A stretch of 64,000 nt of DNA from Candidatus Microgenomates bacterium. Lineage in GTDB: Bacteria > Patescibacteriota > Microgenomatia > UBA8517 > JACQJR01. The translations under genes were made by a program, and so were the position numbers. Every line of letters starts with the position of its first letter. The first letter of the stretch is position 1. Shown one piece after another: positions 4,361 through 21,711 of the stretch. The stretch spans positions 167,793 through 231,792 of the forward strand of contig JACQJR010000001.1 of the NCBI GenBank assembly GCA_016204995.1, read 5' to 3'. A model generated the notes under the pieces. That model made no database searches. It was not told the DNA's origin and worked only from the letters and a program-made list of their open reading frames with translations.

Positions 4361-5413
4361 TCAATTTCTGAATGATAAGAAACCTGTTTTTTGATTATAT
4401 TTTAGTTTAATTTTCTGACTATTTTTCTTAAGAGATTTTTGGGCTGCTTCAAGTAGTATTACTAGATTAACTGCATCTTGCAAAGTAATGATTGGCATTT
4501 TCCTGCTAGTAGTCTTTATTAAAAATTCTTCAAAAACACTTTTTAATGGTTCTTTGTTAGGAATATGAGGAATCGTAATATCCCCATAACGCAAAGTAAA
4601 AAAATGTTTTAACAAACCGTCATCATGATTATTTTTTTCTATTCCCCTATCAAAAAGTTTTACTTTACCATCGCTTTGAGTATCATCAAATGATACCATT
4701 TTTTTATCTCCTACTAAAACAAAGGTTCTAGTTTTAATTGGATCTGCCCAACTAACTCTTAAGTTAAAAAGGGTGTTGTCGGCAAATTCTAAAGTTAAAA
4801 ATGCTACATCGTCAATTTTGGGTGTTAAAAAGGCCCGGCCGGCAGCAGTGATACCGGTAGGCTGTTTGTTTAATAAATGGGTAACCGTATAAATAAAATG
4901 AGTTGATAAATCCCACAGCGCCGAGACATCATTTCTGATTGGACCTAATGCAGTATAATCGCCATAGCCATAATGAATTTTACCAAGAGTATTTTTCATT
5001 ATTAATTCTTTAATCTTTTGGATAGCAGGATTAAAAATAAATGTATGATCAACCATTAAAATACTTCCGTTTTTATTGGCTATCTCTGCTAAATAAATAG
5101 CATCCCTGGCTGAAGAAGTAAGAGGTTTTTCCACTAACACATCTTTGCCTGACTGAAGTATTCTTTTAGCAATATCAAAGTGGTTGGCCGCCGGAACTGC
5201 CACGATTATCCCATCGGTACTTTGATCCTTTAGCAAATCACTTAAATTGGTAGTGGTTTTAACATAAGGATAAAATCGCTGAATTATTTTAAGTTTTTCA
5301 ATAGATAAATCGCAACACCAAACTAAATTTGCACCTTCATACTCGTGTACAATCCTGGCAAAATTTGGCCCCCAATGCCCCAATCCTACAATAGCTATAT
5401 TTTTAGTTTTCAT
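4361..5413 (-). CDS. Gfo/Idh/MocA family NAD(P)-dependent oxidoreductase (WbpB-like sugar 3-dehydrogenase candidate)
   Basis: N-terminal Rossmann motif IAIVGLGHWGPNFARIV and EKPL motif. Paralog of 13446..14465. Confidence 0.7.
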   Translation of the reverse strand: MKTKNIAIVGLGHWGPNFARIVHEYEGANLVWCCDLSIEKLKIIQRFYPYVKTTTNLSDLLKDQSTDGIIVAVPAANHFDIAKRILQSGKDVLVEKPLTSSARDAIYLAEIANKNGSILMVDHTFIFNPAIQKIKELIMKNTLGKIHYGYGDYTALGPIRNDVSALWDLSTHFIYTVTHLLNKQPTGITAAGRAFLTPKIDDVAFLTLEFADNTLFNLRVSWADPIKTRTFVLVGDKKMVSFDDTQSDGKVKLFDRGIEKNNHDDGLLKHFFTLRYGDITIPHIPNKEPLKSVFEEFLIKTTSRKMPIITLQDAVNLVILLEAAQKSLKKNSQKIKLKYNQKTGFLSFRN

Positions 5414-6104
5414 TGAAAGTAATTTTTATCCAGAACGTAAAAAGCTCTTTTAGATATTTTAAGTAACGCACTGGATTACCATACTTTGATCTACCCGCCG
5501 ATCTTTTATAAAATTTGGCTTTAACTTGAGCAATATTATATCCTCTGCGATAAAGGTTAACAAGTAGTTCTGCCGGCATAAAAGTATCTCTGGCAGCAAT
5601 TTTGACATTTTTTAATATTTCCCTTTTATAGGCTTGCACAAAGTGAAAATCTTCAATGGGAGTTCTAAAAAATAACTTTACCAGTAGAAAGCTGGTCATT
5701 GATGTTAATTTTCTAAAATTAGAATTAGCTGATCTGTCTTGACGGACAAAAACTATTACATCCGCGGTTTTAAATTGTTCTCCTGCTCTTTTTAAATCAT
5801 CAAGATTAAAAGCTTGATCGGCAGAATTAGTCAAAATCCATTCGTATCTGGCTTTTTTAAATCCATCCCAAATTGCCCGACCAACCCCTAAATTTTCTTT
5901 ATGAGTTATGCCTTTAACTTTTTTATATTTTTTAATTATTCCTTGGAGAATTTTGGCTGTATTATCTGTAGACCCATCATCAATCACGATAATTTCATAC
6001 TTTTTAGTAAATTTTCTTAGTTTTTGGTTATAAATTTGGATACTATCTTTAATAGCCGCTTCCTCATTAAAAGCCGGCACAATTAAAGAAAGGGAATTTA
6101 GCAT
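5403..6104 (-). CDS. GT2 family glycosyltransferase, Dpm1-like (polyprenyl-phosphate sugar synthase candidate)
   Basis: LIVPAFNEE...IIVIDDGSTDNT...ENLGVGRA motifs of GT-A/GT2. Confidence 0.75.
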   Translation of the reverse strand: MLNSLSLIVPAFNEEAAIKDSIQIYNQKLRKFTKKYEIIVIDDGSTDNTAKILQGIIKKYKKVKGITHKENLGVGRAIWDGFKKARYEWILTNSADQAFNLDDLKRAGEQFKTADVIVFVRQDRSANSNFRKLTSMTSFLLVKLFFRTPIEDFHFVQAYKREILKNVKIAARDTFMPAELLVNLYRRGYNIAQVKAKFYKRSAGRSKYGNPVRYLKYLKELFTFWIKITFNEN

Positions 6105-6158: not shown

Positions 6159-7727
6159 ATGGAAAATCTTAAAAATAACGAGCAAATAGTCTTACAAACC
6201 GAACGGCAAGATGCCAAATTAAGATTTCAATTAAATGAACATAACGCTGAAGAGTATTTAGAGAGCACAGCTTTGGTAAAAGATAAACCCTGGAGCGAGG
6301 AAGACGTAGAGCAGACTAAAAGATTTTTGTTGGCTTGTGCTCCTTTTGCTCATCCTAAAGTTTTTCCCAGCTATTGGGAACATTTAATTATCGCCTCCCT
6401 TTACGGCAAGGAATTAGCCAGAAGAACTAAAAACTCTGATTTTGATCCCTATGAAGCCCAAACATTAATGCTATTACATGATTTAGGCAGGTTAGTTGCG
6501 CCACACCGCTATTTAAGAAATGATGTAATAGAATACTCATTATTAAAACATGCCGGAGAAAGAGCAGATTTACTTAAAACATCTTTCATTTTACCAGAAT
6601 TAATTGGAGTGAAAGTTCCCGGTATCCCAGAAACTCAAAAACCATTTACTAAACTTGCAGATATGACTCTTGCTCAAAGAATTATTGACGTAGCAGATAA
6701 TTTAAGTAAAAGGACTGCCACGGGACAATTATGGACGATTAACGATCTACTAGATTATTCTGCCAAGATGGTAGCGAATTATTCGGCGGAGGGGAAAATT
6801 TGGGCCTCGGAAAGAACCGGCTTAAAAGCTATCGCCGATCCTCCTGCAGGAAAAGGCAAACTAAGATTTGCTGCTCACCTAGTCATAGAAGAAGTAGCAT
6901 GGTTAAAACAAGCTTATGGGATAGATTTTGATAAATTAAGAGATAAAATAACACAAGAATGGAACAATCGGGAGAATCAAGAATTTCTACTTGCTCTTAA
7001 AGATGCCCAGGAAACTTTAGATCAAAATGTAGACCGATTACTGGGTAAGCCTAATATTACTACTGTTGTTTTTGACGTAGGAGATGTGTTATTTCAAGGA
7101 AAAAAGAGTGAAGTATTAGATGATGAACTAATTAGAAGAATATCAGCTTTTTTCAGTTGTTCACCAGAAAATACATTAACAGCCTTTAGAACTTTACATG
7201 TTAAAGGCATGACCGGCCAAATTTCTGAAAGAGAGTATTTGGAACATTTTTGGAAAATTGCCGGAAAAACTCCGCCAGATGGTATAAAAGAATTACGCGT
7301 TCCATTTTTACATCCTGATGTTTACCAACCAAACAGAGAAATGCAAGACATCGTTAAGAACCTATCTCAAAATCCAAACCTTACAATATTCCTTTTCTCC
7401 AATGTTGTATCTGTCTTAACTCCTGTAGTTATTGCGTGCCTAAAAGAATTTTACCCAGAAATATCAGAAAGTAATTATTTATTTTCTAATCGGATAGGCG
7501 TAGCTAAAGGCGTTGACGATAAAGCCGCTTTCCAGTTAGTTTTGGAAATAATTCACCCAGATGATCCGCAGAAAATTTTATTTATTGATGATAATGAAAA
7601 ATATACCACTGCCGCTAGATCGCTTTATAATATTCGCGGCTTCACCTTTCGCGAAAATCCTTATAGGGATCAAACAGCAGATAAAAGATTTAAGCAAGAA
7701 CTCCAAAAAGCAGAGTTAATATCATAA
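6159..7727 (+). CDS. HD-domain phosphohydrolase fused to a C-terminal HAD-like hydrolase domain
   Basis: H...LLHDLGR...D(VADNL) HD motifs in the N-terminal half. C-terminal half has VVFDVGDVL (variant motif I), FLFSNV (S/T), VAKG (K) and FIDDNEKY (DD), consistent with the HAD fold. Confidence 0.45.
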   Translation: MENLKNNEQIVLQTERQDAKLRFQLNEHNAEEYLESTALVKDKPWSEEDVEQTKRFLLACAPFAHPKVFPSYWEHLIIASLYGKELARRTKNSDFDPYEAQTLMLLHDLGRLVAPHRYLRNDVIEYSLLKHAGERADLLKTSFILPELIGVKVPGIPETQKPFTKLADMTLAQRIIDVADNLSKRTATGQLWTINDLLDYSAKMVANYSAEGKIWASERTGLKAIADPPAGKGKLRFAAHLVIEEVAWLKQAYGIDFDKLRDKITQEWNNRENQEFLLALKDAQETLDQNVDRLLGKPNITTVVFDVGDVLFQGKKSEVLDDELIRRISAFFSCSPENTLTAFRTLHVKGMTGQISEREYLEHFWKIAGKTPPDGIKELRVPFLHPDVYQPNREMQDIVKNLSQNPNLTIFLFSNVVSVLTPVVIACLKEFYPEISESNYLFSNRIGVAKGVDDKAAFQLVLEIIHPDDPQKILFIDDNEKYTTAARSLYNIRGFTFRENPYRDQTADKRFKQELQKAELIS

Positions 7728-8866
7728 GTTATTTTTACCTTCCACCATAGTTTAGCCATTTGGACAAGAGTTCGGGGAATCACCATTGGCCGGACTAGCT
7801 CACCCTTAGAGCTACCACCACGGCGTTTATGCCAATGGATGGGTACTTCGGCAAATCTGGCTTTGAGTTTTAAGCATTTATAAGTCATCTCCGGCAAGAA
7901 ATTAGCACTTTTATCCTCCGACTCTATTTTAATTGATTGAACGAGTTGCCTGCGCCAAATTGATACTGTAGAAATTTCGCGGAATTTAATATCAAATAAA
8001 ATTCTGGATAAAAAATGAAATCCCCAGGAGAATATTTTTCGCATTATAGTCTCATTTAATTTTATCCTATAACCAAAAGCACCATCATAACCCCTGACTG
8101 CTTCCAGAAAGTCAGGTAATTCAGTAAAATTAAACTGGCCGTCGGCCGGTGCTAAAAAAATCAGGCGCTTTTTGGCACTGTTAAAACAAGTCCTCATCGC
8201 CCCCGTAAATCCTCTATTTTGTTTGTGATGAACAGCGCGAATGCGTTTATTATTTTTGGTCAATTTATTAATAATTTTATCTGTGCCATCTGTAGAACCA
8301 TCATTAACTAACACAATTTCATAATCCATTTTCATCTTTTGTAAAACAAATTTAGCACTTATGGCTACCTTCTCCAATGTCGCCACTTCATTGAAAGCAG
8401 GGATGACTACCGAAATTGACTCTTTTTCTATCCTTTTTAGAAATTTTTTACTTGAACCTACTACTTTGACAGGAATACCAGCAACAATAGAATAAGGAGA
8501 AATATTAGTAAATTGGGGAACTACTGCGCCGGCTGCCACCACACTATGATGACCAATTTTTGCTCCCATTAAAATTACAGCATTTGAGCCAATAAAACAG
8601 AATTCGCCGATTTCTACTGGCGCTTTCTCTATCTCACTAAACCTTCTTTCGGAAATAGCCCTTTTAACAGTAGTGTGGGTCGTAATTTTGACTCCGGAAG
8701 AGATATCTGTTCCCCGACCTATTTTGAGAGGAGCATAAAGCGCATCAATCAAACAAAATGCCCCAATCCAAACTCGCTCGCCAATTTCCGGCTGGCCTAA
8801 AACCCAGGCGTGTTTATTGTATTTATTTTTGGACAGTCCATGACTTGCAAAATCAAAGACACTCAT
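7670..8866 (-). CDS. Bifunctional protein: N-terminal left-handed beta-helix (hexapeptide) sugar N-acetyltransferase fused to C-terminal GT2 (Dpm1-like) glycosyltransferase
   Basis: Hexapeptide-repeat region IGEFCFIGSNAVILMGAKIGHHSVVAAGAVV...IVAGIPVKVV. This is followed by ISVVIPAFNE...IVLVNDGSTDGT...QNRGFTGA GT2 motifs. Confidence 0.6.
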   Translation of the reverse strand: MSVFDFASHGLSKNKYNKHAWVLGQPEIGERVWIGAFCLIDALYAPLKIGRGTDISSGVKITTHTTVKRAISERRFSEIEKAPVEIGEFCFIGSNAVILMGAKIGHHSVVAAGAVVPQFTNISPYSIVAGIPVKVVGSSKKFLKRIEKESISVVIPAFNEVATLEKVAISAKFVLQKMKMDYEIVLVNDGSTDGTDKIINKLTKNNKRIRAVHHKQNRGFTGAMRTCFNSAKKRLIFLAPADGQFNFTELPDFLEAVRGYDGAFGYRIKLNETIMRKIFSWGFHFLSRILFDIKFREISTVSIWRRQLVQSIKIESEDKSANFLPEMTYKCLKLKARFAEVPIHWHKRRGGSSKGELVRPMVIPRTLVQMAKLWWKVKITYDINSAFWSSCLNLLSAV

Positions 8867-8867
8867 A

Positions 8868-9845
8868 TTACCAACCCAAAGTTCCTTTGATAGATTTTAA
8901 AATTTGCCTGGCTGGCAATCTTTCTCCTGCTACTGTTTCTATTTCTTTAATTCTCAAAATGCTGTCTTTGGTTAAAACATCCACACCCAAATCATTAATA
9001 GCCACAATTCTGCCACAGATTCTACCGGCATAATTTAATGGTGATTTAACTAATTCTGCCTTTTGGATAATGATTTTTTTATCTTCATAAGTAGTGAAAG
9101 CACCAGGATAAGGATCAGATAAAGCGCGAATTAAATTATAAATTTTTAGAGTTGGTAAATTCCAATCTATTCTGCCGTCATCGGGAATTCTAGCACAAGT
9201 ATAGGTAGCCAGTTTTTCATTTTGCTTTTTTCGCCGCGGTGTCCCATTTAACAGTTTAGACAAGTTGCGTATTAAAACTTTAATGGAGGCTGTTTTTGTT
9301 TTCCTATAAACATCAATCGCCGTATCATTAATACCAATCGGTACTTTAATTTGATCAACTAGGTCACCTGAATCCATTCCTTCTGCTAAATAAAATAAAC
9401 TTACTCCAGTTGATTTCTCGCCATTAATGACTACCCAATTTACCGGCGCAAATCCACGATATTTAGGTAAATATGATTCATGTACTGCCACGGATTTATA
9501 TTTAGGAATTTCATAAATTTCCCGAGGAATAATAGTTCGCCAACCCATCACTACTATTAAATCTGGTCTAACTTCTTTTAATAAATTTTTGTCTTCTTCA
9601 GACCTAACAAACTTAGTAATTTTAATGGGAATATGATTTTGATCAGCTAGTGTTTTAATATCATCACAATATTTCTCACGTTCATGGGGATCTTCCGGCA
9701 TACAGAAAATATAGGAAATATTAATGCCCTTGCGAAGAAGTTCTTGCAGACATTCTAAACCCCGATCCCTTCCACCAATAAATACTAATTTTTTATTCTT
9801 TAGATTATTAACTTTTGACATGTTGTAAAATTTGTTTGATAACAT
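8868..9845 (-). CDS. Sugar N-formyltransferase (formyl transferase family, Fmt/ArnA-N-like)
   Basis: HESYLPKYRGFAPVNWVVINGEKSTGVSLFYLAEGMDSGDLV matches the formyltransferase catalytic core HxSLLPxxRG...D. Placed in a sugar-amine context beside a DegT aminotransferase. Confidence 0.65.
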   Translation of the reverse strand: MLSNKFYNMSKVNNLKNKKLVFIGGRDRGLECLQELLRKGINISYIFCMPEDPHEREKYCDDIKTLADQNHIPIKITKFVRSEEDKNLLKEVRPDLIVVMGWRTIIPREIYEIPKYKSVAVHESYLPKYRGFAPVNWVVINGEKSTGVSLFYLAEGMDSGDLVDQIKVPIGINDTAIDVYRKTKTASIKVLIRNLSKLLNGTPRRKKQNEKLATYTCARIPDDGRIDWNLPTLKIYNLIRALSDPYPGAFTTYEDKKIIIQKAELVKSPLNYAGRICGRIVAINDLGVDVLTKDSILRIKEIETVAGERLPARQILKSIKGTLGW

Positions 9846-10938
9846 AATCTTGTTCTAACTTAGTCATCTGAAAATAAAGAGGCAGAATCATGGTCTCTTT
9901 GGTAGCTTTCTCTGTAACCGGTAGGAAGATTTTACCCATAGTTTTAGTGTAAGCTGGTTCCAAATGGGCGGCCATGATACCAAGTCTGGTAGAAATACCA
10001 TCATCAAGCAATCTTTGCATTAATTCGTTTCTGGTTATTTTTTTATTAGGAACGAGTCTCACCATATAAGATTGCCAATTAGTAACATAATTTTCTGGCA
10101 CATATGGGGGGATAATAATATCAGAATTATTAAAAGCCTTATTATAACGCTCTGCTAGACTGGCTCTCCTGACCAGAATCTTGGGAAGTTTTGCCATTTG
10201 AGCTACCCCGACTGCGGCTTGCAGATCAGACATTCTGAAATTATAACCAATTACCGGATAACTCTCTTGGATGATCTTATTTGATTTGTGTCTGGCTACG
10301 TCAGAAATTGACATACCTTGATGCCTTAAAATTCTTAACTTTTCCGCCCAAGTTTTATTGTTAGTTAAAATCATACCACCTTCGCCGGTAGTAATAGTTT
10401 TTCTGGGATGAAAACTTAAACAGGCCAGGTCGCCAAAACTGCCAATTTTTCTACCTTTATAGACGCTGCCTAAAGCACAGGCGGCATCTTCCACTACATG
10501 CAGTTTATATTTTTTGGCAATTTTTAAAATTTTATCCATATCAGCTGGCAGACCGATTTGATCAACCGGAATAATGGCGCGGGTTTTTTTGGTAATTAAT
10601 CTTTCAATTTGAGTCGGATCTATGTTATAAGTTCGCGGATCAATATCGGCAAAAATGGGAGTCGCGCCAACATGTACTGCCACATTGCTAGTCGCAATAA
10701 AAGAAAAAGACGGAACTATCACTTCATCAGCGGGGTCTATTCCTAAAAGATGCAGACTAAGAAAAAGGGCGGTGGTAGCTGAAGTAGTAGCAACCGCATA
10801 TTTGGCCCCGGTATATTCACAAATCAAATTTTCAAATTCTGCCACTTTGGGACCTTGAGTCACCCAGCCAGACTGAAGGACCTTGGCCACAAGTCTTTCC
10901 TCCGACTTGTCAAAAACTGGTTTAGTGATGGGAATCAT
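9808..10938 (-). CDS. DegT/DnrJ/EryC1/StrS family PLP-dependent sugar aminotransferase
   Basis: MIPITKPVF...GWVTQGPKVAEFE...ATTSATTAL. Start chosen at the internal ATG (complement 10938), which gives an ATGA overlap with the upstream gene. The ORF-track start was 10980. Confidence 0.8.
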   Translation of the reverse strand: MIPITKPVFDKSEERLVAKVLQSGWVTQGPKVAEFENLICEYTGAKYAVATTSATTALFLSLHLLGIDPADEVIVPSFSFIATSNVAVHVGATPIFADIDPRTYNIDPTQIERLITKKTRAIIPVDQIGLPADMDKILKIAKKYKLHVVEDAACALGSVYKGRKIGSFGDLACLSFHPRKTITTGEGGMILTNNKTWAEKLRILRHQGMSISDVARHKSNKIIQESYPVIGYNFRMSDLQAAVGVAQMAKLPKILVRRASLAERYNKAFNNSDIIIPPYVPENYVTNWQSYMVRLVPNKKITRNELMQRLLDDGISTRLGIMAAHLEPAYTKTMGKIFLPVTEKATKETMILPLYFQMTKLEQDYVIKQILQHVKS

Positions 10939-11915
10939 CTCTGCGCAGCAGCTTTTTGGGATTTTGCTTCCTTCCTCCACTTAATTAATCTTCTCAATCC
11001 CTCGCTTAAAGATATCTGGGCCTTAAACCCTAAATCTTTCTTAGCTCGCCGAGTATCAGCCTTCCTTCTTTCCACATTGGTAAATTTCCGAGGAGCTTCG
11101 TGAACAATAGCTAATGGCGATTTGGTTAATTGAAGCACTTTTTTAGCCAAAGTATTCAGGCTTGTCTCCCTTCCGGATCCCACATTATAGAAACCTTCAT
11201 TAATTTTGCTTTTTAGAGCACAAATAGTAGCGTAAGCAATATCTTCCACGTAGATAAAATCAAGCGATTGTTTGCCATCACCAAAGATTACGGGTGACAG
11301 TCCTTGATCTATCCGATCCAACCACCTTATTAAAACCTCGGTGTAAACGCCAAAAATATCCATTCTGGCGCCATAGGCATTAAACGGTCTCAAACAGACA
11401 TAATTTAAGCCGTACATGGCTCGGAAAGCTCTAGCCATTTGCTCGTTAGCGATTTTAGCTGCTCCATAAAGAGTTTCGTTGTTGTAAGGGTGATTCTCAT
11501 CCATCGGTACGTATGAAGGATTACCATAGACTGAAGCCGAAGAATTAAAAACTAATTTCTTTACCTTATGTTTGGCGCATGCTTCCAGCACATTAAAAGT
11601 TCCGTCCACTAAAATTTCATTACATAAACGAGGGTCTTCTGCGCATTGCGTAATCCTTATTACTGCTTCATGAATGACATAATCTGCGCCGCGAACTGCC
11701 CTATCAACTGTTTTAGGATCCCTAATATCTCCAGTAATTATTTTTACTTTTTTACTTTTTAAAGCTTCTTGTAAATTTTCTCTTGTCCCTCTGGTAAAAT
11801 TATCCAATACTGTAATTTTGCCAACTTGGTTCTTATAACTTTTAAGTATATAGTCAATTACCCAAGAACCAATAAAGCCTGCTCCGCCAGTAACAACGAA
11901 ATTAAGTTTTGCCAT
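10935..11915 (-). CDS. NAD-dependent epimerase/dehydratase (SDR family; UDP-sugar 4-epimerase/4,6-dehydratase-like)
   Basis: VTGGAGFIGSWV Rossmann motif. YGAAK catalytic YxxxK. Confidence 0.75.
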   Translation of the reverse strand: MAKLNFVVTGGAGFIGSWVIDYILKSYKNQVGKITVLDNFTRGTRENLQEALKSKKVKIITGDIRDPKTVDRAVRGADYVIHEAVIRITQCAEDPRLCNEILVDGTFNVLEACAKHKVKKLVFNSSASVYGNPSYVPMDENHPYNNETLYGAAKIANEQMARAFRAMYGLNYVCLRPFNAYGARMDIFGVYTEVLIRWLDRIDQGLSPVIFGDGKQSLDFIYVEDIAYATICALKSKINEGFYNVGSGRETSLNTLAKKVLQLTKSPLAIVHEAPRKFTNVERRKADTRRAKKDLGFKAQISLSEGLRRLIKWRKEAKSQKAAAQR

Positions 11916-13020
11916 TCTTAAAAAACTCCTTAATTTTTCTGCATATATACATTACTTCTTTTTTAGTTAATTCTGGAAACATGGGGAGTGATAAAATCTC
12001 ATTAGCATATTTTTCCGTAAGGGGAAAATCACCATTGGTGTATTTTAAACCCTCCATGGACTTTTGTAAATGCACGGGGATAGGATAATGCATCCCGGCA
12101 AAAATATTATTTTGATGCAAAAAGTTTAGTAATTCATCCCGCCTCTCTGTTCTAATAACATATAGGTGGTGATTAAGAATTCGCATTTTGTCAGAAAGAG
12201 GCGGCAAAAATAAAGGTAAACCGGTTAATAAATCATGATATAATTTAGCAATTCTTCTTCTTTGGGCATTCCAACGCTCCAGTTTTTTTAACTTAACATT
12301 TAGATAGGCCGCATGGACTGTATCAAGCCGACTATTATAACCAATAAGGTCGTGTTTATATTTAGCTGCCTGACCCACATTTCTTATTATGCGAACATTA
12401 TTAGCCAAAAGGTCATTATTAGTAACTATGGCCCCGCCATCCCCAGCCGCTCCCAAATTTTTACCGGGATAAAAGGAAAAAGCTGCTATGTCACCAAAAG
12501 AACCACACTTTTTGCCAGCCAGCGAAGACCCATGCGCCTGACAAGCGTCTTCTAGAATATATAATTTATGTTTTTTTGCAATTTTTAAAATTGCCTTCAT
12601 CGAGGCAGGAGTACCGTAAAGATGAACTGGAATAATAACTTTAGTTTTGCGTGTAATTGCTTTTTCAATTAATTTAGGATCTATCTGATAAGTATCAGAA
12701 TCACAGTCAACCAAGACCGGCTTTGCCCCTAAATAAATAATTGGCAAAACTGTGGCAATGAAAGTGTTAGCAACCGTAATAACTTCGTCCCCTGGTGCCG
12801 TACCAAGAGCCCGCAATGACAGAAGTAAGGCATCTGTACCTGAAGCCACTCCGATACAATGTTTAACTCCGCAATATTTAGCAAAATTTTTCTCAAAATC
12901 AGCCACTTCCTCGCCCAAAATAAAATTTCCTTTAGCCAATATTTTATTAACCGCGGAAGGAATATCCTTTTTCAAAGTTTTATATTGTCTTTGTAAATCA
13001 ACTAATTGAATTGCCTTCAT
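11902..13020 (-). CDS. DegT/DnrJ/EryC1/StrS family sugar aminotransferase (WbpE-like candidate)
   Basis: Typical DegT N-terminus and PLP-fold motifs (GVASGTDALLLSL). Confidence 0.8.
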   Translation of the reverse strand: MKAIQLVDLQRQYKTLKKDIPSAVNKILAKGNFILGEEVADFEKNFAKYCGVKHCIGVASGTDALLLSLRALGTAPGDEVITVANTFIATVLPIIYLGAKPVLVDCDSDTYQIDPKLIEKAITRKTKVIIPVHLYGTPASMKAILKIAKKHKLYILEDACQAHGSSLAGKKCGSFGDIAAFSFYPGKNLGAAGDGGAIVTNNDLLANNVRIIRNVGQAAKYKHDLIGYNSRLDTVHAAYLNVKLKKLERWNAQRRRIAKLYHDLLTGLPLFLPPLSDKMRILNHHLYVIRTERRDELLNFLHQNNIFAGMHYPIPVHLQKSMEGLKYTNGDFPLTEKYANEILSLPMFPELTKKEVMYICRKIKEFFKNGKT

Positions 13021-13021
13021 A

Positions 13022-13459
13022 TCATTTTCTTAAAACCCTGCCGGGATTACCTATTACCACGGCTCCATCTGGAACGTGACGAATTACCACGGCTCCAGCG
13101 CCAATTATAGAATTTTTACCAATCCTCACCGGCAAAATTGTCACATTTGATCCAATTCTAACATTATCTTCAATGAAAGTATTTTTCATTACCCAATTTT
13201 TTGTATTCGGTGAATCATATAAATCATTAATAAACATAACCCCATGGGCTATAAAAACATTGTCACCAACAGTTACGCCTTCGCAAATAAAACTATGACT
13301 GCTAACTCGGGAATTTTTTCCGATCGTCACATTTTTTTGTATTTCCACAAAGGGACCCACAAAAACATTATCACCCAAAACACAACCGTATAGATTCACT
13401 AAATCTGGATAGGGTATTTTAACATCTTTACCCAGCTTAACAGTCTTATCTACGGGCAT
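13022..13459 (-). CDS. Hexapeptide-repeat sugar N-acetyltransferase (WbpD/PglD-like)
   Basis: Left-handed beta-helix repeats VGDNVFIAHGV..IGSNVTILPVRIGKNSIIGAGAVV. Start set at the internal ATG (MPVDK) to remove a 59-nt overlap. The ORF-track start was 13504. Confidence 0.7.
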   Translation of the reverse strand: MPVDKTVKLGKDVKIPYPDLVNLYGCVLGDNVFVGPFVEIQKNVTIGKNSRVSSHSFICEGVTVGDNVFIAHGVMFINDLYDSPNTKNWVMKNTFIEDNVRIGSNVTILPVRIGKNSIIGAGAVVIRHVPDGAVVIGNPGRVLRK

Positions 13460-14465
13460 GATCAAAAACCACCTTTCTGCCAGTCCGGGCCGACTTAGTA
13501 GCACTTTCTAGAATTTCCACAATTTGCGCCCCGAATGTACCGCTACTTTTTGGTTCTTTCCGTGTTTCAATGGCATTTAAAAAATCTTGGACTAGTAGAG
13601 AAAGAGGCTCTACCACATTAACTTTAGGCAACCAGACATCTCCTGTTCTATAGCCTATTTTGGCATCCTCCAATTCTCTTAATTTTTTAGGAATGATTAC
13701 TCCTTTATCATAAATCCGTACTTTTTCTGTAGGCTCAATATCGTCATAAACAATCATTTTTTTAGTACCAACGATTAGCATCCGACGTATTTTAGCCGGA
13801 GATAGCCAACTGATATGAACAGATGCAGAAATATTTTTGAGATATTCAGCAAAGACATAAGCCACATCTTCATGCTGTCCAAAATGGACTCTTCCATGTG
13901 CATAAACACTTTTAGGATGAGCGCCTAATAAATAATTGATTATGGAAAAATCATGCGTAGCTAAATCAAAAATTACATTAGAATCTTTTTGGAAAAGACC
14001 CAAGTTTACTCTGACTGAATCAATATATAAAATATCACCTAGCTCTTTGCCATCAATTATCTCCTTAATCCTAGTTACTGCATCGTTAAAAAGAAAGGTA
14101 TGATCAACCATTAAAATACGTTTATGTTTTCTAGCTACTTTAACTAACTGCCAAGCATGGGAGCAGTCTAAAGTCATGGGTTTTTCAATTAAAACATCCT
14201 TGCCGTGTTCTGCGGCTTTTTTGGCTAGAGGAAAATGAGTGATTGTAGGGGTTGCTAAAACAATACCATGAATAGTGGAATCTTTAACAACCTGATCAAA
14301 ATCTGTTGTTACTTCAATAGAAGGATATCTTTTTTTAACGGCCTTTAATTTATTTTGGTCCTTATCACAACAATAAACTACCTCGCATCCCGAATTGTCA
14401 AAAAGATTACGCAGTAAATTAGGACCCCAATATCCATAACCCACCAAAGCAACGCGCTTATCCAT
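13446..14465 (-). CDS. Gfo/Idh/MocA family oxidoreductase (WbpB-like)
   Basis: VALVGYGYWGPNLLRNL Rossmann N-terminus and EKPM motif. Adjacent to aminotransferase and acetyltransferase genes, as in UDP-2,3-diacetamido sugar pathways. Confidence 0.7.
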   Translation of the reverse strand: MDKRVALVGYGYWGPNLLRNLFDNSGCEVVYCCDKDQNKLKAVKKRYPSIEVTTDFDQVVKDSTIHGIVLATPTITHFPLAKKAAEHGKDVLIEKPMTLDCSHAWQLVKVARKHKRILMVDHTFLFNDAVTRIKEIIDGKELGDILYIDSVRVNLGLFQKDSNVIFDLATHDFSIINYLLGAHPKSVYAHGRVHFGQHEDVAYVFAEYLKNISASVHISWLSPAKIRRMLIVGTKKMIVYDDIEPTEKVRIYDKGVIIPKKLRELEDAKIGYRTGDVWLPKVNVVEPLSLLVQDFLNAIETRKEPKSSGTFGAQIVEILESATKSARTGRKVVFDHARR

Positions 14466-14534: not shown

Positions 14535-14885
14535 TCACTTCTTTAAAAAGTAAATTATTAATCCAACAACTAAAAATCCATATACATAATTACCTAATAA
14601 TTCCGCGCTTTCATATTCCCCTAAAAAAATTAGCAATAGAGATATAAACAATAGTAAAAATATCGCCAATAAGATTATTTTTATACTTAGCTTAAAGATA
14701 ATCATAAAAGATGCCATAATCATAAATAGAATTAATTCTTTTTTAATATAGAGATTAAAATAGGGAAGAGTTGGTAAAAGATAAAATAAACCCAATAAAA
14801 AAACAAAACCAATAACTTGATGGCGATTAGTAATAATTTTTTTAAAAAAATATTGTTCCAATTTAACTAACTTATATTTTTTCAT
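14535..14885 (-). CDS. Small hydrophobic membrane protein (hypothetical)
   Basis: Three predicted TM segments. Start set at the internal ATG (MKKYKL), which gives a 4-nt overlap with the upstream giant gene. Confidence 0.3.
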   Translation of the reverse strand: MKKYKLVKLEQYFFKKIITNRHQVIGFVFLLGLFYLLPTLPYFNLYIKKELILFMIMASFMIIFKLSIKIILLAIFLLLFISLLLIFLGEYESAELLGNYVYGFLVVGLIIYFLKK

Positions 14886-17800
14886 TGGCGTTTTCTTCTT
14901 TTTAACAAATATATAAAAATTCCCAAAAATGATATACAAAACACTGCTATACTGATTAAAGCCCCCACATAAAAAGCCTTTTGAGGGAAATATTCTATCA
15001 CAAACTTACCAGTGCCTAAACTATCCACCTTCCATCCATTGGCATAACCATCAACTATAAAATGATTTGAAATAATTTTGTTACTTTTAGAAAACAAACC
15101 TTTTATTAAACCAAAAGGATTATTTTGTCCCTCATCTGAATTACTTATCTCTCTTAATCTCCATAATTTATCAAATCGCTCATTAAAAATTAATATAAAA
15201 GGCGTCGCTGATCTTTGTAATTGTAATTCATATCTAGTAGGGTTTTTCTTATCATAATCGACAGATGGCGCTTTAATGGAAAATTTCTTATCACTTTCAT
15301 TATTTAATACTACAAATGGAGAAAATATCTCTTCTGCAGTCACATTATCAATTTGAGGTTTTTCCTTATTCTCATTGCAAACATAAATATTGAGATATTT
15401 TGAATTAATAGAAGGATAGTAAATGTAAGTAAATGGCTGATAGTTTAGTATCGGATAAATACCTAATTCTCGCTGCCCTTTTATGAAATACTGTAATTGA
15501 GGATCTTCTTTATTATCCTCCCTTACAAAAAGTTTAAGTGCCTGATCCTTACGGGAAGCACTAATTCTGACTTTATAAAAAAGACTGCTATCAAATCTTT
15601 CAATGCTTCCATAGTAACAAGATATGGTTCCACTCGGGGACTGCTCTAATTTATAACCGTGGGACTTAAAGATATTTGGCAAATTATCAAATCTAACAAC
15701 TAAGGTAAATGCACCGATCAGACCAGGAGGCGATTCCATATGGATTATATCCTCACTCTTTTTAATTATCTTGAGTGGCCACTCTTTATTTTCTTGGGTT
15801 AATGTTGCCGTTTTGGGATAAATCCGCTGGCCATCGGTATCAAAAGGTAAAAAATGAGTACTAATAAATAAGCCGTCTGAATTTTTTTCTGTTAGATTAA
15901 CATGAAATACTTTTTCATTTCGCCATTTATTTTCGTCATTTAATATTGGTGTATAAAAAGTCTTAATTCTATAAATTTGCCAAAGCACATCGGTTAAACC
16001 TTGAATAACATTTTCGCCAAAAGTGCCAGATCTAGCTTTGTCTAACTCTATGCGAAGATTTATCTCAATTGGGTTAAGGATTTGTATAATCATGCGCGCT
16101 TTCTCAAAATCCTCTTTGGGATCAGAGGTTGATGACAAAAGCTGATGAGTAATTACTAAATAATCATTCATCATTTTTAATGATCCTATCAAATATTTCT
16201 CTCGCTCACGAAAATCCAACATATTTTTTACTTCGCCTGCTCTCCGTAAAGTTGCTCCTAAATAAACATTGATTTTTTCTTTGTCATTAGTGGCTAGAAG
16301 CAATTCCTTTTTTTCTCTGATTTTTTTTAATAAATAAAGAGGGGAATTAGGTAGAACCCTCACTTTGGGTAAATCTGCATTTGTTTCTATATTTTCTATC
16401 AGACAAGACTCACATTGATAATATGTGAGTTCTGCAGAGAATAAATCTCTGGGGATATTATTTGATTTAGATTCTTTTTGGGGAACTAAAAAAATATTAC
16501 TATTAGAAGCAAATGATCTATAAAGAAAAGGGTAATTTTGGGGAATAGCCACCAATGACGATATAGCATAAATCTTTTTATTAAACTCTGAATCAATTTT
16601 ATAAATGGTCCATTCCCCGAAAATTTTTGCTTTCTTGATATGAATCAATGAGCTTAAAATATTTTCAAATTTTTGAGGCGATTTTAAACTGAATAAATGG
16701 TCATCTGCTAAAATATCATTTCTCACTAAGAAAAAATTTATTCCTAGTCTTGATGATAAATTTAATATCTTTTCTTCTTTATCGCCTTGCTCTATAGACA
16801 AGTAAAGCTCCTGTAACCAATTTCTCTCTTCCGGACTTAAACTGGCATCGTTTGCCAGAGTATTTTTAAAAGTTAACATTGACGGCAAGGTAGATAAACT
16901 CCAATATCCCCAACTATAGCTATCTACTTTCCAACCTTCGTCCAGTGATGGTAATAATAAAATCCTCCCATTGGTATAATTATTATCTGCCCAATTTTTA
17001 AAATCCTGGACATAATCGGGAATGTGTACCTTAGTTGTAGCGGACTTTTGCCAATACAAAACTTGAGGAGAAAAAAGCGGTTTATAATACCATAGCCACC
17101 CCCCGATAATAATGATGGTTAAAAATAAAGTAGAAATAGATTTTAAGCCGTCATTCTTAATGAAACTTACTATTTTAATTGAACAAATAGACAAGGTAAA
17201 GCCAATTAGGACGCTCATGCTTAAAAAGAATGTTGATCCGAATTTATAAAAAGGGGTTCTAAATATAACAAACCCCGGTACCTTATCATATAAAAAATCG
17301 TATATGAAACCCAACGGAGGATGAGTTCCGGCCATAAAAATTAAGACGACAACAATTAATAAGACAAAAAAAGAAATTAATCTTCTCTGTATAGTTGTTT
17401 TTACTAATAGTAAAGATGAAAATGCCAATACAGGAAAAAGAAAGCTAACAGCAATTAATGTTTGATCTTTAAAATAGGCCTCCGCATACGGATGATTGAG
17501 ATTAATATTGTATTGATCAGTATACCAATCTGGTATACCTTGTAGTCTAAACATATTAATGAATGAAGAAGACTGGCTGATATAATTAAGCCAAGATTTA
17601 TTAGGGACAGTAATACTTTCATTAAAAAAATTTGATAGATCGCCATAAAATAATTTAACTAAATATGGAAGAATGGCATAACTATTTATCAATATGTAGC
17701 CTACTAGGGTTAGAACTAAGAAGGTTAACAATTTATAAACCTGCTCAAACTTACGTGTTAAAAATCCCCAGATGGTGGTGTACAGCAAAAGCACTAACAC

Positions 17801-18421
17801 CATGACTATTAAACCACCATATAATGGCAAACCCCAAATACTGCCGCCGTTAAAAACAAAAAATATAATAGCGGATAGAATGGCTGCTAACAGAATCTCC
17901 ATCTTTCTTGTCAATACTCTCAAGGAAATAGCTAAAAAAATCAGCGTAGCAGATAATAATCCATATTTGGCCCGTTCTAGCATAAAAATTGATTGGAAAA
18001 CATAAAAATTAAAAGTTATGAAAACTGGAAAAATAAAAACAAAAACTTTGCCAAAATTATCTTTGACAGAAAAAGCAAAAACTAATGCTGAAGAGAAAAG
18101 TATTGCCAGCCAGAAAAAGATGAGCAGATAATTACCAGCCGCCTGGTTGCCAGCCAGAATAGTTAAAATATAATCTATAACGTGCAGAGTAATACTGCCA
18201 AAGTTAACTGCATTATCTTGACCAAAATTAAGATGATCATCCCAAGCATAAAAACGACTATTTAAAAATTGTTTTGCATCAAGTGCCAAACCGGAATCAT
18301 GACCAGCTAAAACAAATCCCTCTGGCAGCCAGGACTTAGTTAAAAACCAAAAACCAATTAGGGCAAAGATTAGATAAACTGTGCATAAAGATAAAAATTT
18401 ATTCTTTTTAATTAATCTCAT
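14882..18421 (-). CDS. Giant (1179 aa) polytopic membrane protein, GT-C-like (YfhO/AftD-like architecture) with large extracytoplasmic domain and C-terminal TM anchor
   Basis: About 12 N-terminal TM helices. The first loop, AGHDSGLALDAKQFLNSRFYAWDDHLNFGQD, is acidic-rich. A roughly 650-aa soluble region follows. A terminal TM helix is followed by KRRKRQ. Confidence 0.5.
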   Translation of the reverse strand: MRLIKKNKFLSLCTVYLIFALIGFWFLTKSWLPEGFVLAGHDSGLALDAKQFLNSRFYAWDDHLNFGQDNAVNFGSITLHVIDYILTILAGNQAAGNYLLIFFWLAILFSSALVFAFSVKDNFGKVFVFIFPVFITFNFYVFQSIFMLERAKYGLLSATLIFLAISLRVLTRKMEILLAAILSAIIFFVFNGGSIWGLPLYGGLIVMVLVLLLYTTIWGFLTRKFEQVYKLLTFLVLTLVGYILINSYAILPYLVKLFYGDLSNFFNESITVPNKSWLNYISQSSSFINMFRLQGIPDWYTDQYNINLNHPYAEAYFKDQTLIAVSFLFPVLAFSSLLLVKTTIQRRLISFFVLLIVVVLIFMAGTHPPLGFIYDFLYDKVPGFVIFRTPFYKFGSTFFLSMSVLIGFTLSICSIKIVSFIKNDGLKSISTLFLTIIIIGGWLWYYKPLFSPQVLYWQKSATTKVHIPDYVQDFKNWADNNYTNGRILLLPSLDEGWKVDSYSWGYWSLSTLPSMLTFKNTLANDASLSPEERNWLQELYLSIEQGDKEEKILNLSSRLGINFFLVRNDILADDHLFSLKSPQKFENILSSLIHIKKAKIFGEWTIYKIDSEFNKKIYAISSLVAIPQNYPFLYRSFASNSNIFLVPQKESKSNNIPRDLFSAELTYYQCESCLIENIETNADLPKVRVLPNSPLYLLKKIREKKELLLATNDKEKINVYLGATLRRAGEVKNMLDFREREKYLIGSLKMMNDYLVITHQLLSSTSDPKEDFEKARMIIQILNPIEINLRIELDKARSGTFGENVIQGLTDVLWQIYRIKTFYTPILNDENKWRNEKVFHVNLTEKNSDGLFISTHFLPFDTDGQRIYPKTATLTQENKEWPLKIIKKSEDIIHMESPPGLIGAFTLVVRFDNLPNIFKSHGYKLEQSPSGTISCYYGSIERFDSSLFYKVRISASRKDQALKLFVREDNKEDPQLQYFIKGQRELGIYPILNYQPFTYIYYPSINSKYLNIYVCNENKEKPQIDNVTAEEIFSPFVVLNNESDKKFSIKAPSVDYDKKNPTRYELQLQRSATPFILIFNERFDKLWRLREISNSDEGQNNPFGLIKGLFSKSNKIISNHFIVDGYANGWKVDSLGTGKFVIEYFPQKAFYVGALISIAVFCISFLGIFIYLLKRRKRQ

Positions 18422-19463: not shown

Positions 19464-21664
19464 TTATGGTCCAAGAAATTCTATATCATCTAGATAAAAT
19501 GTACCGCTGTTTTTTGTACCAATCATATTAAAGGACAGTATAGCAAAGCGGGCATCGGGCGGAGCTTTGGCAGTAACTGATATTTTATACCATTTAGATT
19601 GACCGAAAACTCTAGGTGATAAAGCTATCACCTCTCCTGGTAAATTAATATTGGCATCTTCCTTGTTAAAGAAATCTATCCGTAAAAACCCATCGCGTTC
19701 TACCTCATTTAAAAATCCCACTGGTTTTAACCAACCAGTTAAAGTATAAACCTCTGATGGCGTAACAGAAATTTTTGGACTCATTAGTCTAGGACCGCGA
19801 TAATAAATATTTTCTAAATCATACTCTAAAGAGCCTTTTCCACTATGTCCTTCCTTTAAACTAAAAGAAATATTAATTTTACTTTTATTACCTAATTCCT
19901 CTAAACGCCAAAAATCTTTTTCTTGTTCTTTATCAAAAGAAAATCTTTTAATTAAGTTATTAGCCGTTGGCAAAGAAGTAGGCAAGGCAGAAAAATACAA
20001 GCCAGACATGTCACACATACTATCTCTAGTAAAACTTTTTAATAAGTTTGCCCGACTAAAATATTCCCTCATTGCTAAAGTAACATAATAATTTTGGTAA
20101 AGAGGTTGGGGAATAATAAAAAAATTATTTTCAAACATATAAGTAAAACGTGATAAAATCCCAGTATTAATAAAAAAATAATCAAACTTTCGCTCTTGTA
20201 GTTCTGTTAAAAAGAAATCTGTATCAGGCCTCACTTCCGTAACTTGATAAGATTTTTTGGGTAAGGCAATGGGAGAAACTTGGGCTATTTTTTTATCAGC
20301 TGAAATATTTTCGTTAATCCATTTAACGCTAAATTCATCAGGGCTTACCCCACCGCAAGACCAACTACTAACAACAGAAGTTGTGATTGGGTGATAAAGA
20401 ACCAACCCTGATATGACAAAAAATATCATCATGACATTAACCCTCTTTTTAATTATTTTTCCCAAATTATCCTTAAGATTTAACAAAAAAATAGCCGCGA
20501 ATATTGATAAAAATGGCACCAGTGGTAAATTCAACCTTTCATAAACCGCTGGTATATAAAAAGAGTTATAGATAAAGGTAAATAGAGGAATAATTAGTAA
20601 AAATAAAGTTTTTTTAAGATGACGAAATAAAGATAAAAAAATCCCCCCAATTGATACTAAAGCTAAACCTGGCCCTAAAACTCGAAAGATTAAAAATGAT
20701 GAATGAAATTCTTTAAATCCAGTAGGAATAAGAGTTGATAAACTAGGAATACTAGACTTACCGCCTGAAGAAATATAAGATAGGATAGACGTCATAAAAG
20801 CCGTTATAGAAGTCCCATACCATAAAAACTGAGCTCCAGCTTCTTCTTGCAGAATATGACGACTATCGGCACTAAAGAATAAGTATGGCACACCAATAAA
20901 TATTCCCACGGGAATGGCGAGAAGTCCCAAAGAAAATTTTGATAGTCTTTTTGATAATTTATCTTTATCTAAAAAAATAACAAATGGATAAGCAAGAAAA
21001 GCCAAAGGAAAATATTTTATAGTAGAGGACAAACCAATCAAAAAACCACTAGCCAAATACCATTTCAGGCGGCTAGTAGTTACAGCTTTAACCATAAAGA
21101 GTAATGATAAAAGGATGAGAAAGATAAATGAAACATCGGTGGTAATATAATGAGAATCCCTGACATGCAAAGGGTTTAAGGCGAAAATTAAAGCTGATAA
21201 AAAACCGATTTTTGGATTAAATAATTTTTTAGCGATTAGATAAACGATCAAAACGCTTATTGTGCCAATTATGGCTGTCAATGCTCTACCCTCTAAGAAA
21301 GATAAGGAATTGATATCACTAGTTACATATTCAATAAAATCTATGGCTTTGTTATTGAATGATGTAGGCGGAGGTTGAGAAATTTTTAAATTGGTTAAAA
21401 TTATCCCGATAATCCAAAAGGGAATGTAAACTAAAGATTGTAAATAAAAAATCCAAGAACCATATTTATAAGCATGCGGCTCAAAATCTCCATTTGTAAT
21501 AATGTTATAAAAAAGGGCTTTCGCATGTTTTATAATATAAGCCTCATCTGTATGGGCAATATTAGGAACTAGACCGATAAAGCGAACCAGTAGGGCAACA
21601 GCAAGAATGATAAATAAAAGCTTATTATTTTTTAAAGCACGCCGAATTCCCCTCATTAGCATTA
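19464..21664 (-). CDS. GT-C glycosyltransferase, PMT/ArnT-like (group A) with C-terminal CBM-like beta-sandwich domain
   Basis: The loop-1 motif AHTDEAY carries the conserved Asp-Glu. NPLHVRDSHY follows. About 12 TM helices. C-terminal GFLRIDFF...W.K...APP...F...YLDDIEFL is shared with 24921..27164 and 32236..34386. Start placed at MLMRG (complement 21664). The ORF-track start was 21803. Confidence 0.6.
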
Positions 21665-21711
21665 GGCGTATTATACTAGATTTTAATCGTGTATAATATC
21701 TAACATAAATT

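Follow-up and report, generated by a model that had tools for sequence, protein, structure and literature searches.

A fused acetyltransferase-glycosyltransferase of a Microgenomates glycosylation island is a candidate for coupled acetylation and lipid loading of an amino sugar

Does an open reading frame (ORF) that appears to join an acetyltransferase to a glycosyltransferase encode a genuine two-domain enzyme, and which steps of sugar metabolism would such an enzyme bring together? The question is raised by a gene at 7670..8866 in a 64,000-nucleotide stretch of DNA (here called the window; positions 167,793 to 231,792 of contig JACQJR010000001.1, assembly GCA_016204995.1) from a Candidatus Microgenomates bacterium, a member of the candidate phyla radiation (CPR). 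A preliminary description of the window proposed that the gene product combines an N-terminal left-handed β-helix (LbH) acyltransferase of the kind that N-acetylates amino sugars with a complete GT2 glycosyltransferase of the polyprenyl-phosphate type, so that an amino sugar would be acetylated and then loaded onto a lipid carrier, or the reverse. We found that the fusion is genuine, and we judge it fairly probable, from sequence and model comparisons, that the product is a bifunctional enzyme that acetylates an amino sugar and then loads it onto polyprenyl phosphate.

A single unbroken frame of 398 amino acids fills 7670..8866 exactly, and its ATG lies 1 nt past the stop codon of the upstream ORF (8868..9845); this gene and its operon are encoded on the minus strand. 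The protein matched all three Pfam models that the preliminary description had named: Hexapep (PF00132, residues 84–117, 45.9 bits with a cutoff of 27), Hexapep_2 (PF14602, 41.1 bits), and Glycos_transf_2 (PF00535, residues 152–268, 77.6 bits with a cutoff of 23.3). An AlphaFold2 model generated from a 56-sequence alignment of the fusion family had a mean predicted local distance difference test score (pLDDT) of 88 and a predicted template modeling score of 0.74, and was confident across the domain junction. The model displayed a β-helix at residues ∼20–138 (pLDDT mostly >90), a linker helix at 139–143, a GT-A α/β domain from residue 150, and a long C-terminal helix at 362–397. A protein database search with the fusion yielded 739 relatives at E ≤ 1e-5. 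The LbH-GT2 architecture was present in ∼112 of the best 120 of these (counted as clusters), with 51–67% identity; the fusion relatives came from independent NCBI, ENA, JGI, and Logan assemblies and belong to CPR/Microgenomates. The family alignment had a mean column identity of 63% and a conserved junction, GSSKKFLKxxExESISVVIPAYNE, which includes the inter-domain linker (residues 139–149, SSKKFLKRIEK; 8420..8452), where S139 and L143 are nearly invariant and where GT2-only relatives begin exactly. Because the architecture recurs in >110 clusters from independent assemblies, the fusion is not an assembly artefact. Clustering of 1.84 billion proteins at 50% left one full-length fusion representative, which confines the fusion to one clade.

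The N-terminal half (residues 1–140; 8447..8866) most resembles a sugar N-acetyltransferase. Its best sequence match in the Protein Data Bank (PDB) was 8vr6 (E 1.4e-16), with γ-carbonic anhydrases and O-acetyltransferases scoring lower, and Foldseek superimposed it on 8vr6, 8vr7, and 8vrm with 34–35% identity and a root-mean-square deviation of 1.7 Å (TM(target) of 0.65 for 8vr7/8vrm). The depositors named these structures the Pcryo_0619 N-acetyltransferase of Psychrobacter cryohalolentis K5. In addition to the LbH fold, a β-helix of hexapeptide repeats according to Pfam and AlphaFold2, the two proteins share W, D, T-H, and G positions; in contrast, Pcryo_0619 is a stand-alone protein of 182 residues and does not contain E73, H107, and S108, which are invariant in the fusion family. 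Of the 46 positions with ≥90% conservation among the 73 stand-alone orthologs described below, the fused domain retains 38, including W33, D41, H64, R69, and H107. His64, within the T-H motif (8675..8677), does not vary among the 56 fusion proteins or the 73 stand-alone orthologs and is aligned to the His of 8vr6, making it the likely acetyltransferase base. In an alignment with the γ-carbonic anhydrase 1v3w, the zinc-ligand histidines, which we take to be those of the pattern H ... GH-x4-H, were not matched: the segment GHnamvH lay within an insertion or was aligned with E/A residues of the query, and Thr occupied the position of the first His. A γ-carbonic anhydrase-like or other non-acyltransferase LbH protein, the possibility against which the preliminary description had warned, was thus ruled out by the unaligned zinc histidines together with the N-acetyltransferase top match. 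Weak similarity to the lipid-acting O-acetyltransferase YvoF was also detected with NCBIfam (7e-12). Taken together, these comparisons bear out the proposed class of this domain, at ∼140 rather than 150 residues. Across the CPR relatives, the LbH half is more conserved (65–74% identity) than the GT2 half (51–57%).

The C-terminal half contains a GT-A fold GT2 domain (residues 150–361; 7784..8419) that Pfam, NCBIfam, Foldseek, and an alignment with ArnC place near ArnC, DPMS, and GtrB. The top 24 Foldseek matches in the PDB were ArnC, PfDPMS, and GtrB (E 1e-13 to 6e-10, with ArnC best at 1e-13), and end-to-end fold or sequence matches were obtained only with enzymes that act on polyprenyl or dolichyl phosphate (ArnC, DPMS, GtrB, AglJ, and DPhHxTase). 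The counterpart of the DADLQ motif of ArnC, GtrB, and DPMS is P240-A-D242-G-Q244 (PADGQ; 8135..8149), in which D242 and Q244 align with the ArnC metal ligands D102 and Q104. P240, D242, and G243 are invariant in the 56-sequence alignment; Q244 is present in the window protein and most family members and is replaced by G or E in some. R267 and R276 align with the ArnC phosphate-binding residues R128 and R137 (PMC12690121), of which the R267 position is not family-invariant. The loop R348-R-G-G351-S-S-K354 (7805..7825), with invariant R348, G351, and K354, corresponds to REFGESK of ArnC. R276 also lies within an amphipathic helix (residues 272–291, ETIMRKIFSWGFHFLSRILF; 7994..8053; modeled by AlphaFold2 as a helix at 274–291) with a hydrophobic moment of 0.55, >2 standard deviations above the protein mean, and a mean hydrophobicity of +0.24; we predict that this is a juxtamembrane or interface helix. 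The domain departs from the known enzymes at the first Asp of DxDxQ (D100 of ArnC, D94 of GtrB, and D89 of DPMS), which two structural papers of 2025 proposed as the catalytic base of polyprenyl-phosphate glycosyltransferases (PMC12690121, PMC12698845) and which was termed universally conserved and the likeliest base in GtrB (PMC12698845). The closest structural relatives therefore agree with the polyprenyl-phosphate GT2 that had been postulated, whereas its completeness does not hold, given a Pro at the first Asp and the lack of transmembrane helices.

The surrounding operon provides candidates for the preceding steps. In the direction of transcription, it encodes a GFO/IDH/MocA oxidoreductase similar to WbpB and UDP-GlcNAc 3-dehydrogenases (13446..14465), a stand-alone LbH sugar N-acetyltransferase like FdtD, WlbB, and QdtC (13022..13504), a sugar aminotransferase (DegT_A, 11902..13020), a short-chain dehydrogenase/reductase (SDR) of the epimerase/oxidase type with the motifs SSASVYG...YGAAK, the presumed maker of a keto sugar (10935..11915), a second aminotransferase resembling ArnB and perosamine synthases that would supply the amine (DegT_B, 9808..10980), and a formyltransferase-fold protein (FMT, 8868..9845). 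For DegT_B, the best PDB match was ArnB (1mdo, 3.4e-76), followed by perosamine synthases, with 8vr3/8vr5 at about 1e-56 (8vr3, 1.2e-56), and it is most likely a C4 aminotransferase. The SDR matched 8vr2 (8.6e-30). The accessions 8vr2 and 8vr3/8vr5 are adjacent to 8vr6, which suggests that the operon and the Pcryo_0619 set share a three-enzyme module of SDR, DegT, and LbH proteins. The fused LbH domain would be one of several N-acyl steps in the operon, together with 13022..13504 and possibly 8868..9845, and because the operon has a separate classic N-acetyltransferase (13022..13504), it would act on the second amine rather than the first.

The P. cryohalolentis K5 O-antigen contains 2,3,4-triacetamido-2,3,4-trideoxy-L-arabinose (PMC8040287). 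The window differs in having no C6 dehydrogenase/decarboxylase signature, and its product may accordingly be a hexose sugar instead of a pentose. Neither the window nor the surroundings of the cassette in two other loci (L066 and L034) yielded a UDP-sugar 6-dehydrogenase, and the SDR does not contain a T-S/D-E signature; a pentose of the Ara4N type, formed by a C6 dehydrogenase and a decarboxylase, is less favored but may still be the product.

To place the fusion among its orthologs, one genome per species was scanned, which gave 80 loci, and each locus was analyzed by tblastn with the window proteins and by ORF extraction. The orthologs proved to be split outside the fused clade, a point the preliminary description had asked about. 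The LbH ortholog stands alone (typically 140–170 residues, 47–62% identity in most) in 73 loci outside the fused CPR ones, from Nitrospirota, Verrucomicrobia/Opitutae, Planctomycetes, Microbacteriaceae, Vampirovibrio, cyanobacteria, and others. A DegT gene lies within 1.5 kb in 58 of these 73 loci, and DegT together with SDR in 52, compared with DegT in eight of the nine fused loci; the window gene order GFO, LbH, DegT, SDR, DegT, LbH recurs in full at many of them. A hidden Markov model of the GT2 half located a GT2 gene (310–336 residues) starting 0–60 nt downstream of LbH on the same strand in 27 of the 73 loci, including members of the Nitrospirota, Verrucomicrobia/Opitutae, and Planctomycetes; database matches in Nitrospirota and Opitutae that had been considered as fusions were rejected, as ORF analysis revealed separate adjoining genes. 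The NCBIfam ArnC model aligns with these partner GT2s over its full length (153–193 bits), the PgfS model scores 210–230 bits on them, and they possess two or three hydrophobic C-terminal segments (transmembrane helices). LbH and GT2 are also separate genes in the CPR loci L014–L018. An Acidimicrobiales locus (L048, 657..2081) encodes a fusion of 474 residues in the reverse order, an ArnC-like GT2 with transmembrane helices followed by LbH, and a Methylomirabilota locus (L020, 1709..3304) encodes a fusion of 531 residues in which LbH precedes an ArnB/PseC-like aminotransferase. Because the Microbacteriaceae carry LbH, SDR, and DegT with no GT2 nearby, the LbH enzyme would appear to work without a lipid-linked substrate. 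The 27 LbH-GT2 gene pairs, the L020 and L048 fusions, and the Microbacteriaceae loci thus favor the order transamination, N-acetylation, and lipid loading, and disfavor acetylation after loading; of the two orders left open by the preliminary description, the first is retained.

These features lead us to propose that the fusion unites two steps of a rare amino-sugar pathway, the final one in solution and the initial one at the membrane. The operon would transform UDP-HexNAc into a UDP-2,3-diacetamido-4-amino sugar: the GFO/IDH/MocA oxidoreductase, DegT_A, and the stand-alone LbH protein would create the 3-acetamido group, and the last amine, most likely the one at C4, would be introduced by the SDR together with the ArnB-like DegT_B. 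The LbH domain, presumably trimeric by analogy with other LbH acyltransferases, would N-acetylate that amine with acetyl-CoA, using the invariant His64 as the likely base. Acting at the cytoplasmic face of the membrane, to which it may bind by its amphipathic helix instead of transmembrane helices, the GT2 domain would then take the sugar, now fully N-acylated, from UDP and pass it to polyprenyl (undecaprenyl) phosphate. The lipid-linked sugar would be flipped and used by one of the PMT_2-type GT-C enzymes of the island, as in a three-component extracytoplasmic glycosylation system. The fusion might channel the product and pull the transamination forward, as formylation does in the Arn pathway. 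The domain identities, the orthology of the two halves, and the gene arrangements and fusions that indicate the order of steps are observed; in this scheme, we infer the exact sugar, the lipid acceptor, the trimerization, the channeling, and the downstream GT-C enzyme. The link from the amino-sugar pathway to the GT-C enzymes of the island, which the preliminary description had drawn as direct, is suggested by gene context.

Several observations weigh against this proposal. Pcryo_0619 is only ∼35% identical to the LbH half and is longer by ∼57 residues at the N-terminus. In the GT2 half, the first Asp of DxD is missing, with invariant Pro240 in its place, and there are no transmembrane helices, no 19-residue window having reached a Kyte-Doolittle value of 1.6. 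Curated models (ArnC, PgfS, AglJ, PpgS, NeuD, and others) all scored far below their cut-offs on the fusion. The SDR resembles an epimerase more than a dehydratase or decarboxylase, and a C6 dehydrogenase is absent, so that more than one sugar would fit. The FMT gene lies between DegT_B and the fusion, and in a CPR relative (L089) FMT alone precedes a GT2-only ortholog, so FMT could be the real N-acylating enzyme here. Finally, in another CPR relative (L090), a GT2-only ortholog directly follows DegT_B with no acyltransferase between them.

The main rival for this particular genome, although we regard it as improbable, is formylation according to Arn-like logic: FMT would N-formylate the 4-amine and the GT2 half would load the formamido sugar, leaving the fused LbH domain redundant, a maker of an alternative N-acetyl glycoform, or an enzyme that acetylates another position (an O-acetyl group or another amine). 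The FMT gene is directly upstream of the fusion and translationally coupled to it, the same arrangement is found in the closest relative (P0002), and in P0011 FMT is joined to the C-terminus of LbH-GT2 in one continuous frame (an FMT-LbH-GT2 order for P0011 was ruled out by tblastn and translation). In L089, a GT2-only ortholog with 57% identity is separated from DegT by FMT alone, and ArnC accepts only the formylated sugar (PMC12690121). On the other hand, FMT is non-canonical. Although it is similar to Fmt (1e-41) and to the formyltransferase domain of ArnA (8e-37), and is annotated by pipelines as methionyl-tRNA formyltransferase, its N-x-H motif reads A-V-H, and the catalytic Asn is present in none of 111 homologs from several phyla (A in 61, G in 29, I in 17, V in 3, and T in 1). 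By these comparisons, FMT belongs to a separate, uncharacterised branch whose genes lie within sugar operons, and it may supply an alternative N-acyl group or do something else. Moreover, FMT is absent from most fusion loci, and the LbH domains of FMT-associated members retain all family-invariant residues; LbH is also the better conserved half across CPR. Two natural module swaps were observed among CPR relatives, DegT-FMT-GT2 without LbH in L089 (4217..5841) and DegT-GT2 with neither LbH nor FMT in L090 (6880..8774).

We give about the same small weight to a second alternative, in which the GT2 half is a peripheral GT2 that transfers the sugar to a lipid-linked oligosaccharide, a glycolipid, or a protein rather than to polyprenyl phosphate. 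This reading would account for the absence of transmembrane helices, for the Pro at a position termed universally conserved, and for scores about ten-fold below the cut-offs of the equivalog models for polyprenyl-phosphate glycosyltransferases (e.g., 55–56 bits versus a cut-off of 529 for the ArnC equivalog, NF007986). It fits less well with polyprenyl- and dolichyl-phosphate glycosyltransferases as both the best and the only end-to-end matches, with the conserved phosphate-binding Arg equivalents, RxxGxSK loop, and amphipathic helix, and with the pairing of the same LbH protein in other phyla with clear ArnC-type membrane GT2s that also have no first Asp. The island, in addition, is rich in GT-C enzymes, which require lipid-phosphate sugar donors. 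C-terminal transmembrane helices are not universal among polyprenyl-phosphate glycosyltransferases: human DPM1 and mycobacterial PpgS are GT2s without them, with short (∼240-residue) catalytic domains that act on lipid phosphate, and the PpgS substrate is an N-acetylated amino sugar. The GT2 half resembles PpgS in being a short domain without transmembrane helices; however, the PpgS model NF058614 listed no match for the GT2 half and gave 35–44 bits, compared with a 370-bit cut-off, for members of its PADGQ subfamily, ruling out an identification of that subfamily with PpgS. The fusion belongs to no curated equivalog family.

Much less probable is the reverse order, in which the GT2 half would load the free-amine sugar and LbH would acetylate the lipid-linked product at the membrane. 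The fusion would bring LbH to the membrane in that case, and the YvoF similarity and the L090 arrangement could be cited in its favor. It is at odds with the Microbacteriaceae clusters of LbH, SDR, and DegT but no GT2, with the joining of LbH to an aminotransferase in L020, and with a closest solved relative that is an N-acetyltransferase according to its depositors and comes from an O-antigen producer that makes a triacetamido sugar. An artefactual ORF, for which the separate adjoining LbH and GT2 genes of other phyla allow in principle a lost stop codon, and which could otherwise arise from a frameshift or misassembly as the preliminary description had cautioned, can be dismissed with near certainty, as an identical protein occurs on three contigs, >110 distinct clusters have the architecture and a conserved linker, and AlphaFold2 is confident across the junction.

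With an acetylating and lipid-loading fusion as the favored assignment, the missing Asp acquires wider interest. All 27 adjacent partner GT2s of the transmembrane type have (A/S)ADLQD in place of the canonical motif, L048 has GADLQE, and the fused and split GT2 forms of CPR have PADGQ. Of 32 other GT2 ORFs at these loci, 15 have the canonical D, and those without it are mostly cassette GT2s 1–3 kb away (L044, L072, L067, and L075) or CPR paralogs. In a rough neighbor-joining tree without bootstrap, the transmembrane-type clade that has no D was located amid DADLQ enzymes such as GtrB and ArnC, and the PADGQ group amid CPR DxD GT2s without transmembrane helices. The fused GT2 was only 24% identical to a partner GT2 and 28–29% identical to GtrB-like sequences. 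Because the tree separates the two groups and the identity to the partner is so low, we suggest at least two independent losses of the first Asp. A specific tie between PADGQ and LbH was only partly upheld: in the lineage without transmembrane helices, PADGQ marks a wider subfamily of ∼240-residue GT2s, including FMT-paired forms and forms that stand alone or in unknown context, and is a trait of the whole subfamily; the tight association of Asp loss with LbH holds for the transmembrane-type partner clade.

The normal role of the first Asp may be to contact a hydroxyl of the donor or the phosphate of the acceptor, in which case it could be dispensable or obstructive for a per-N-acylated sugar. 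As a tentative extension, two unrelated lineages of polyprenyl-phosphate GT2s (PADGQ enzymes without transmembrane helices and ArnC-like membrane enzymes with A/S/G-ADLQ) may naturally operate without this residue, its loss perhaps being an adaptation to a per-N-acylated donor without free hydroxyls, and a fused or adjacent LbH may mark a donor-specific subclass. If these proteins are active undecaprenyl-phosphate glycosyltransferases, the first Asp would not be a general base for the class, and the cassette-coupled GT2s would constitute a natural test of the 2025 catalytic models of ArnC and GtrB. The window encodes a second Dpm1-like GT2 without transmembrane helices (5403..6104, minus strand, 233 residues) that also has no first DxD Asp (NSADQ); its gene overlaps one for a GFO/MocA protein similar to UDP-GlcNAc 3-dehydrogenase (4361..5413, minus strand), and it may be another amino-sugar loader. 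Elsewhere, a PADGQ-type domain without transmembrane helices ends longer proteins of 730–1190 residues (P0244, P0248, P0251, P0271, P0285, and P0336), in which it may be fused to membrane or GT-C modules.

The closest pathway analogue is the set of ArnB, the ArnA formyltransferase, and ArnC, which comprises C4 amination, N-acylation of the amine, and GT2 transfer to undecaprenyl phosphate. The fusion shares with ArnC the metal-ligand Asp and Gln, the R128/R137 equivalents, and the REFGESK-like loop, but its GT2 half is only 22% identical to ArnC (55 bits against the 529-bit cut-off), has PADGQ rather than DADLQ, and possesses neither the transmembrane helices nor the tetramer-forming C-terminus of that enzyme. 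The acyl group of the Arn pathway is formyl, whereas we propose acetyl from the LbH domain, and no ArnD-type deacylase was present among window ORFs of ≥120 residues. Neisserial PglB is the closest functional precedent: its LbH-type domain N-acetylates a UDP-4-amino sugar, and the same polypeptide loads undecaprenyl phosphate (PMC6959607), the combination proposed here. PglB differs in its opposite domain order, its non-homologous transferase half, and its loader, a phosphoglycosyltransferase making an undecaprenyl-diphosphate sugar that starts an oligosaccharide; the GT2 here would make an undecaprenyl-phosphate sugar as a GT-C donor. The three-component GtrB/GtrA/Gtr* systems and PfDPMS likewise have a GT-A polyprenyl-phosphate glycosyltransferase with juxtamembrane amphipathic helices that feeds a GT-C enzyme, but GtrB and DPMS contain transmembrane helices and DADLQ, handle simple hexoses, and have no sugar-tailoring fusion. 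A lipid-loading synthase fused to a processing module is known in ORF15 (PMC11127046). Within the literature library that we searched, there was no mention of 8VR6 or Pcryo_0619, nor of an LbH-GT2 fusion in CPR. The novelty lies in a previously unreported pairing of known domains with known logic and a non-canonical active-site motif.

Over 700 relatives in the databases carry no annotation beyond "glycosyltransferase" or "carbonic anhydrase/acetyltransferase-like", and the fused and split forms offer them a concrete and testable function. The seven-gene cassette of GFO, LbH, DegT, SDR, DegT, LbH, and GT2 occurs in Patescibacteria, Nitrospirota, Verrucomicrobia, Planctomycetes, and other groups; its probable product is a lipid-linked tri-N-acyl amino sugar with which the cell surface would be decorated. 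The surface chemistry of CPR bacteria is almost unknown, and the cassette provides a lead to what these organisms of reduced genome display.

The window as a whole is a glycosylation island, with about nine to ten PMT_2 GT-C genes plus an AftD-like GT-C, several Dpm1-like GT2s, methyltransferases, and radical SAM enzymes. The GT-C (PMT_2/AftD-like) paralogs include 14882..18421, 19464..21803, 24921..27164, 32236..34386, 36823..38256, 47964..49106, 49103..51172, 51174..53162, and 58913..60937, an unusual density for a single 64-kb island in a CPR organism with a small genome. Downstream of the GT2, related loci encode PMT_2, weakly YfhO-like, F5/8-type-C, or large unannotated membrane proteins, a context that fits the synthase, flippase, and GT-C enzyme of a three-component system (PMC11127046). 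Two F5/8-type-C proteins of ∼820 residues in the window (34391..36832 and 38253..40751) recur beside the fusion in relatives. A multi-transmembrane ORF of ∼134 residues with no Pfam match heads the operon (14535..14939) and has a counterpart of the same size and position, likewise with no Pfam match, in the locus of a relative (L085, 1138..1539); a role as a flippase or as a tether that holds the GT2 at the membrane is conceivable.

At its 3' end, the fusion gene encodes the long C-terminal helix (residues 362–398, with the stop codon at the end of 7670..7783), which has no transmembrane segment and whose last ∼20 residues are peculiar to this genome, an extension with no counterpart in most homologs. 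Because of these extra residues, the gene overlaps a convergent HD and HAD domain gene (6159..7727, plus strand) by 58 nt (7670..7727). An HD-domain gene also adjoins the fusion in L001 (upstream, same strand) and in L008. Among the stand-alone LbH orthologs, those of Myxococcales/deltaproteobacteria (46–59% identity) have no DegT and mostly no SDR nearby and thus lie in a different context; these loci are L021, L022, L025, L031, L035, L039, L042, L051, L054, L069, L076, and L078, and some of their LbH domains end longer ORFs that may be ORF-calling artefacts in high-GC DNA.

Two other fusions were noted in the island. A 420-residue protein (29584..30846, plus strand) joins an S-adenosylmethionine-dependent methyltransferase to a Dpm1-like GT2 with no transmembrane helices and the motif DADRT, and a similar gene of 474 codons occurs in L088; this is the second island case of a tailoring domain joined to a GT2 of the lipid-loading type. 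An 823-residue protein (55298..57769, minus strand) combines a 4,6-dehydratase of the PglF/CapD type (Polysacc_synt_2, 351 bits) with a DegT aminotransferase (326 bits) and would join two consecutive steps of a bacillosamine-like pathway.

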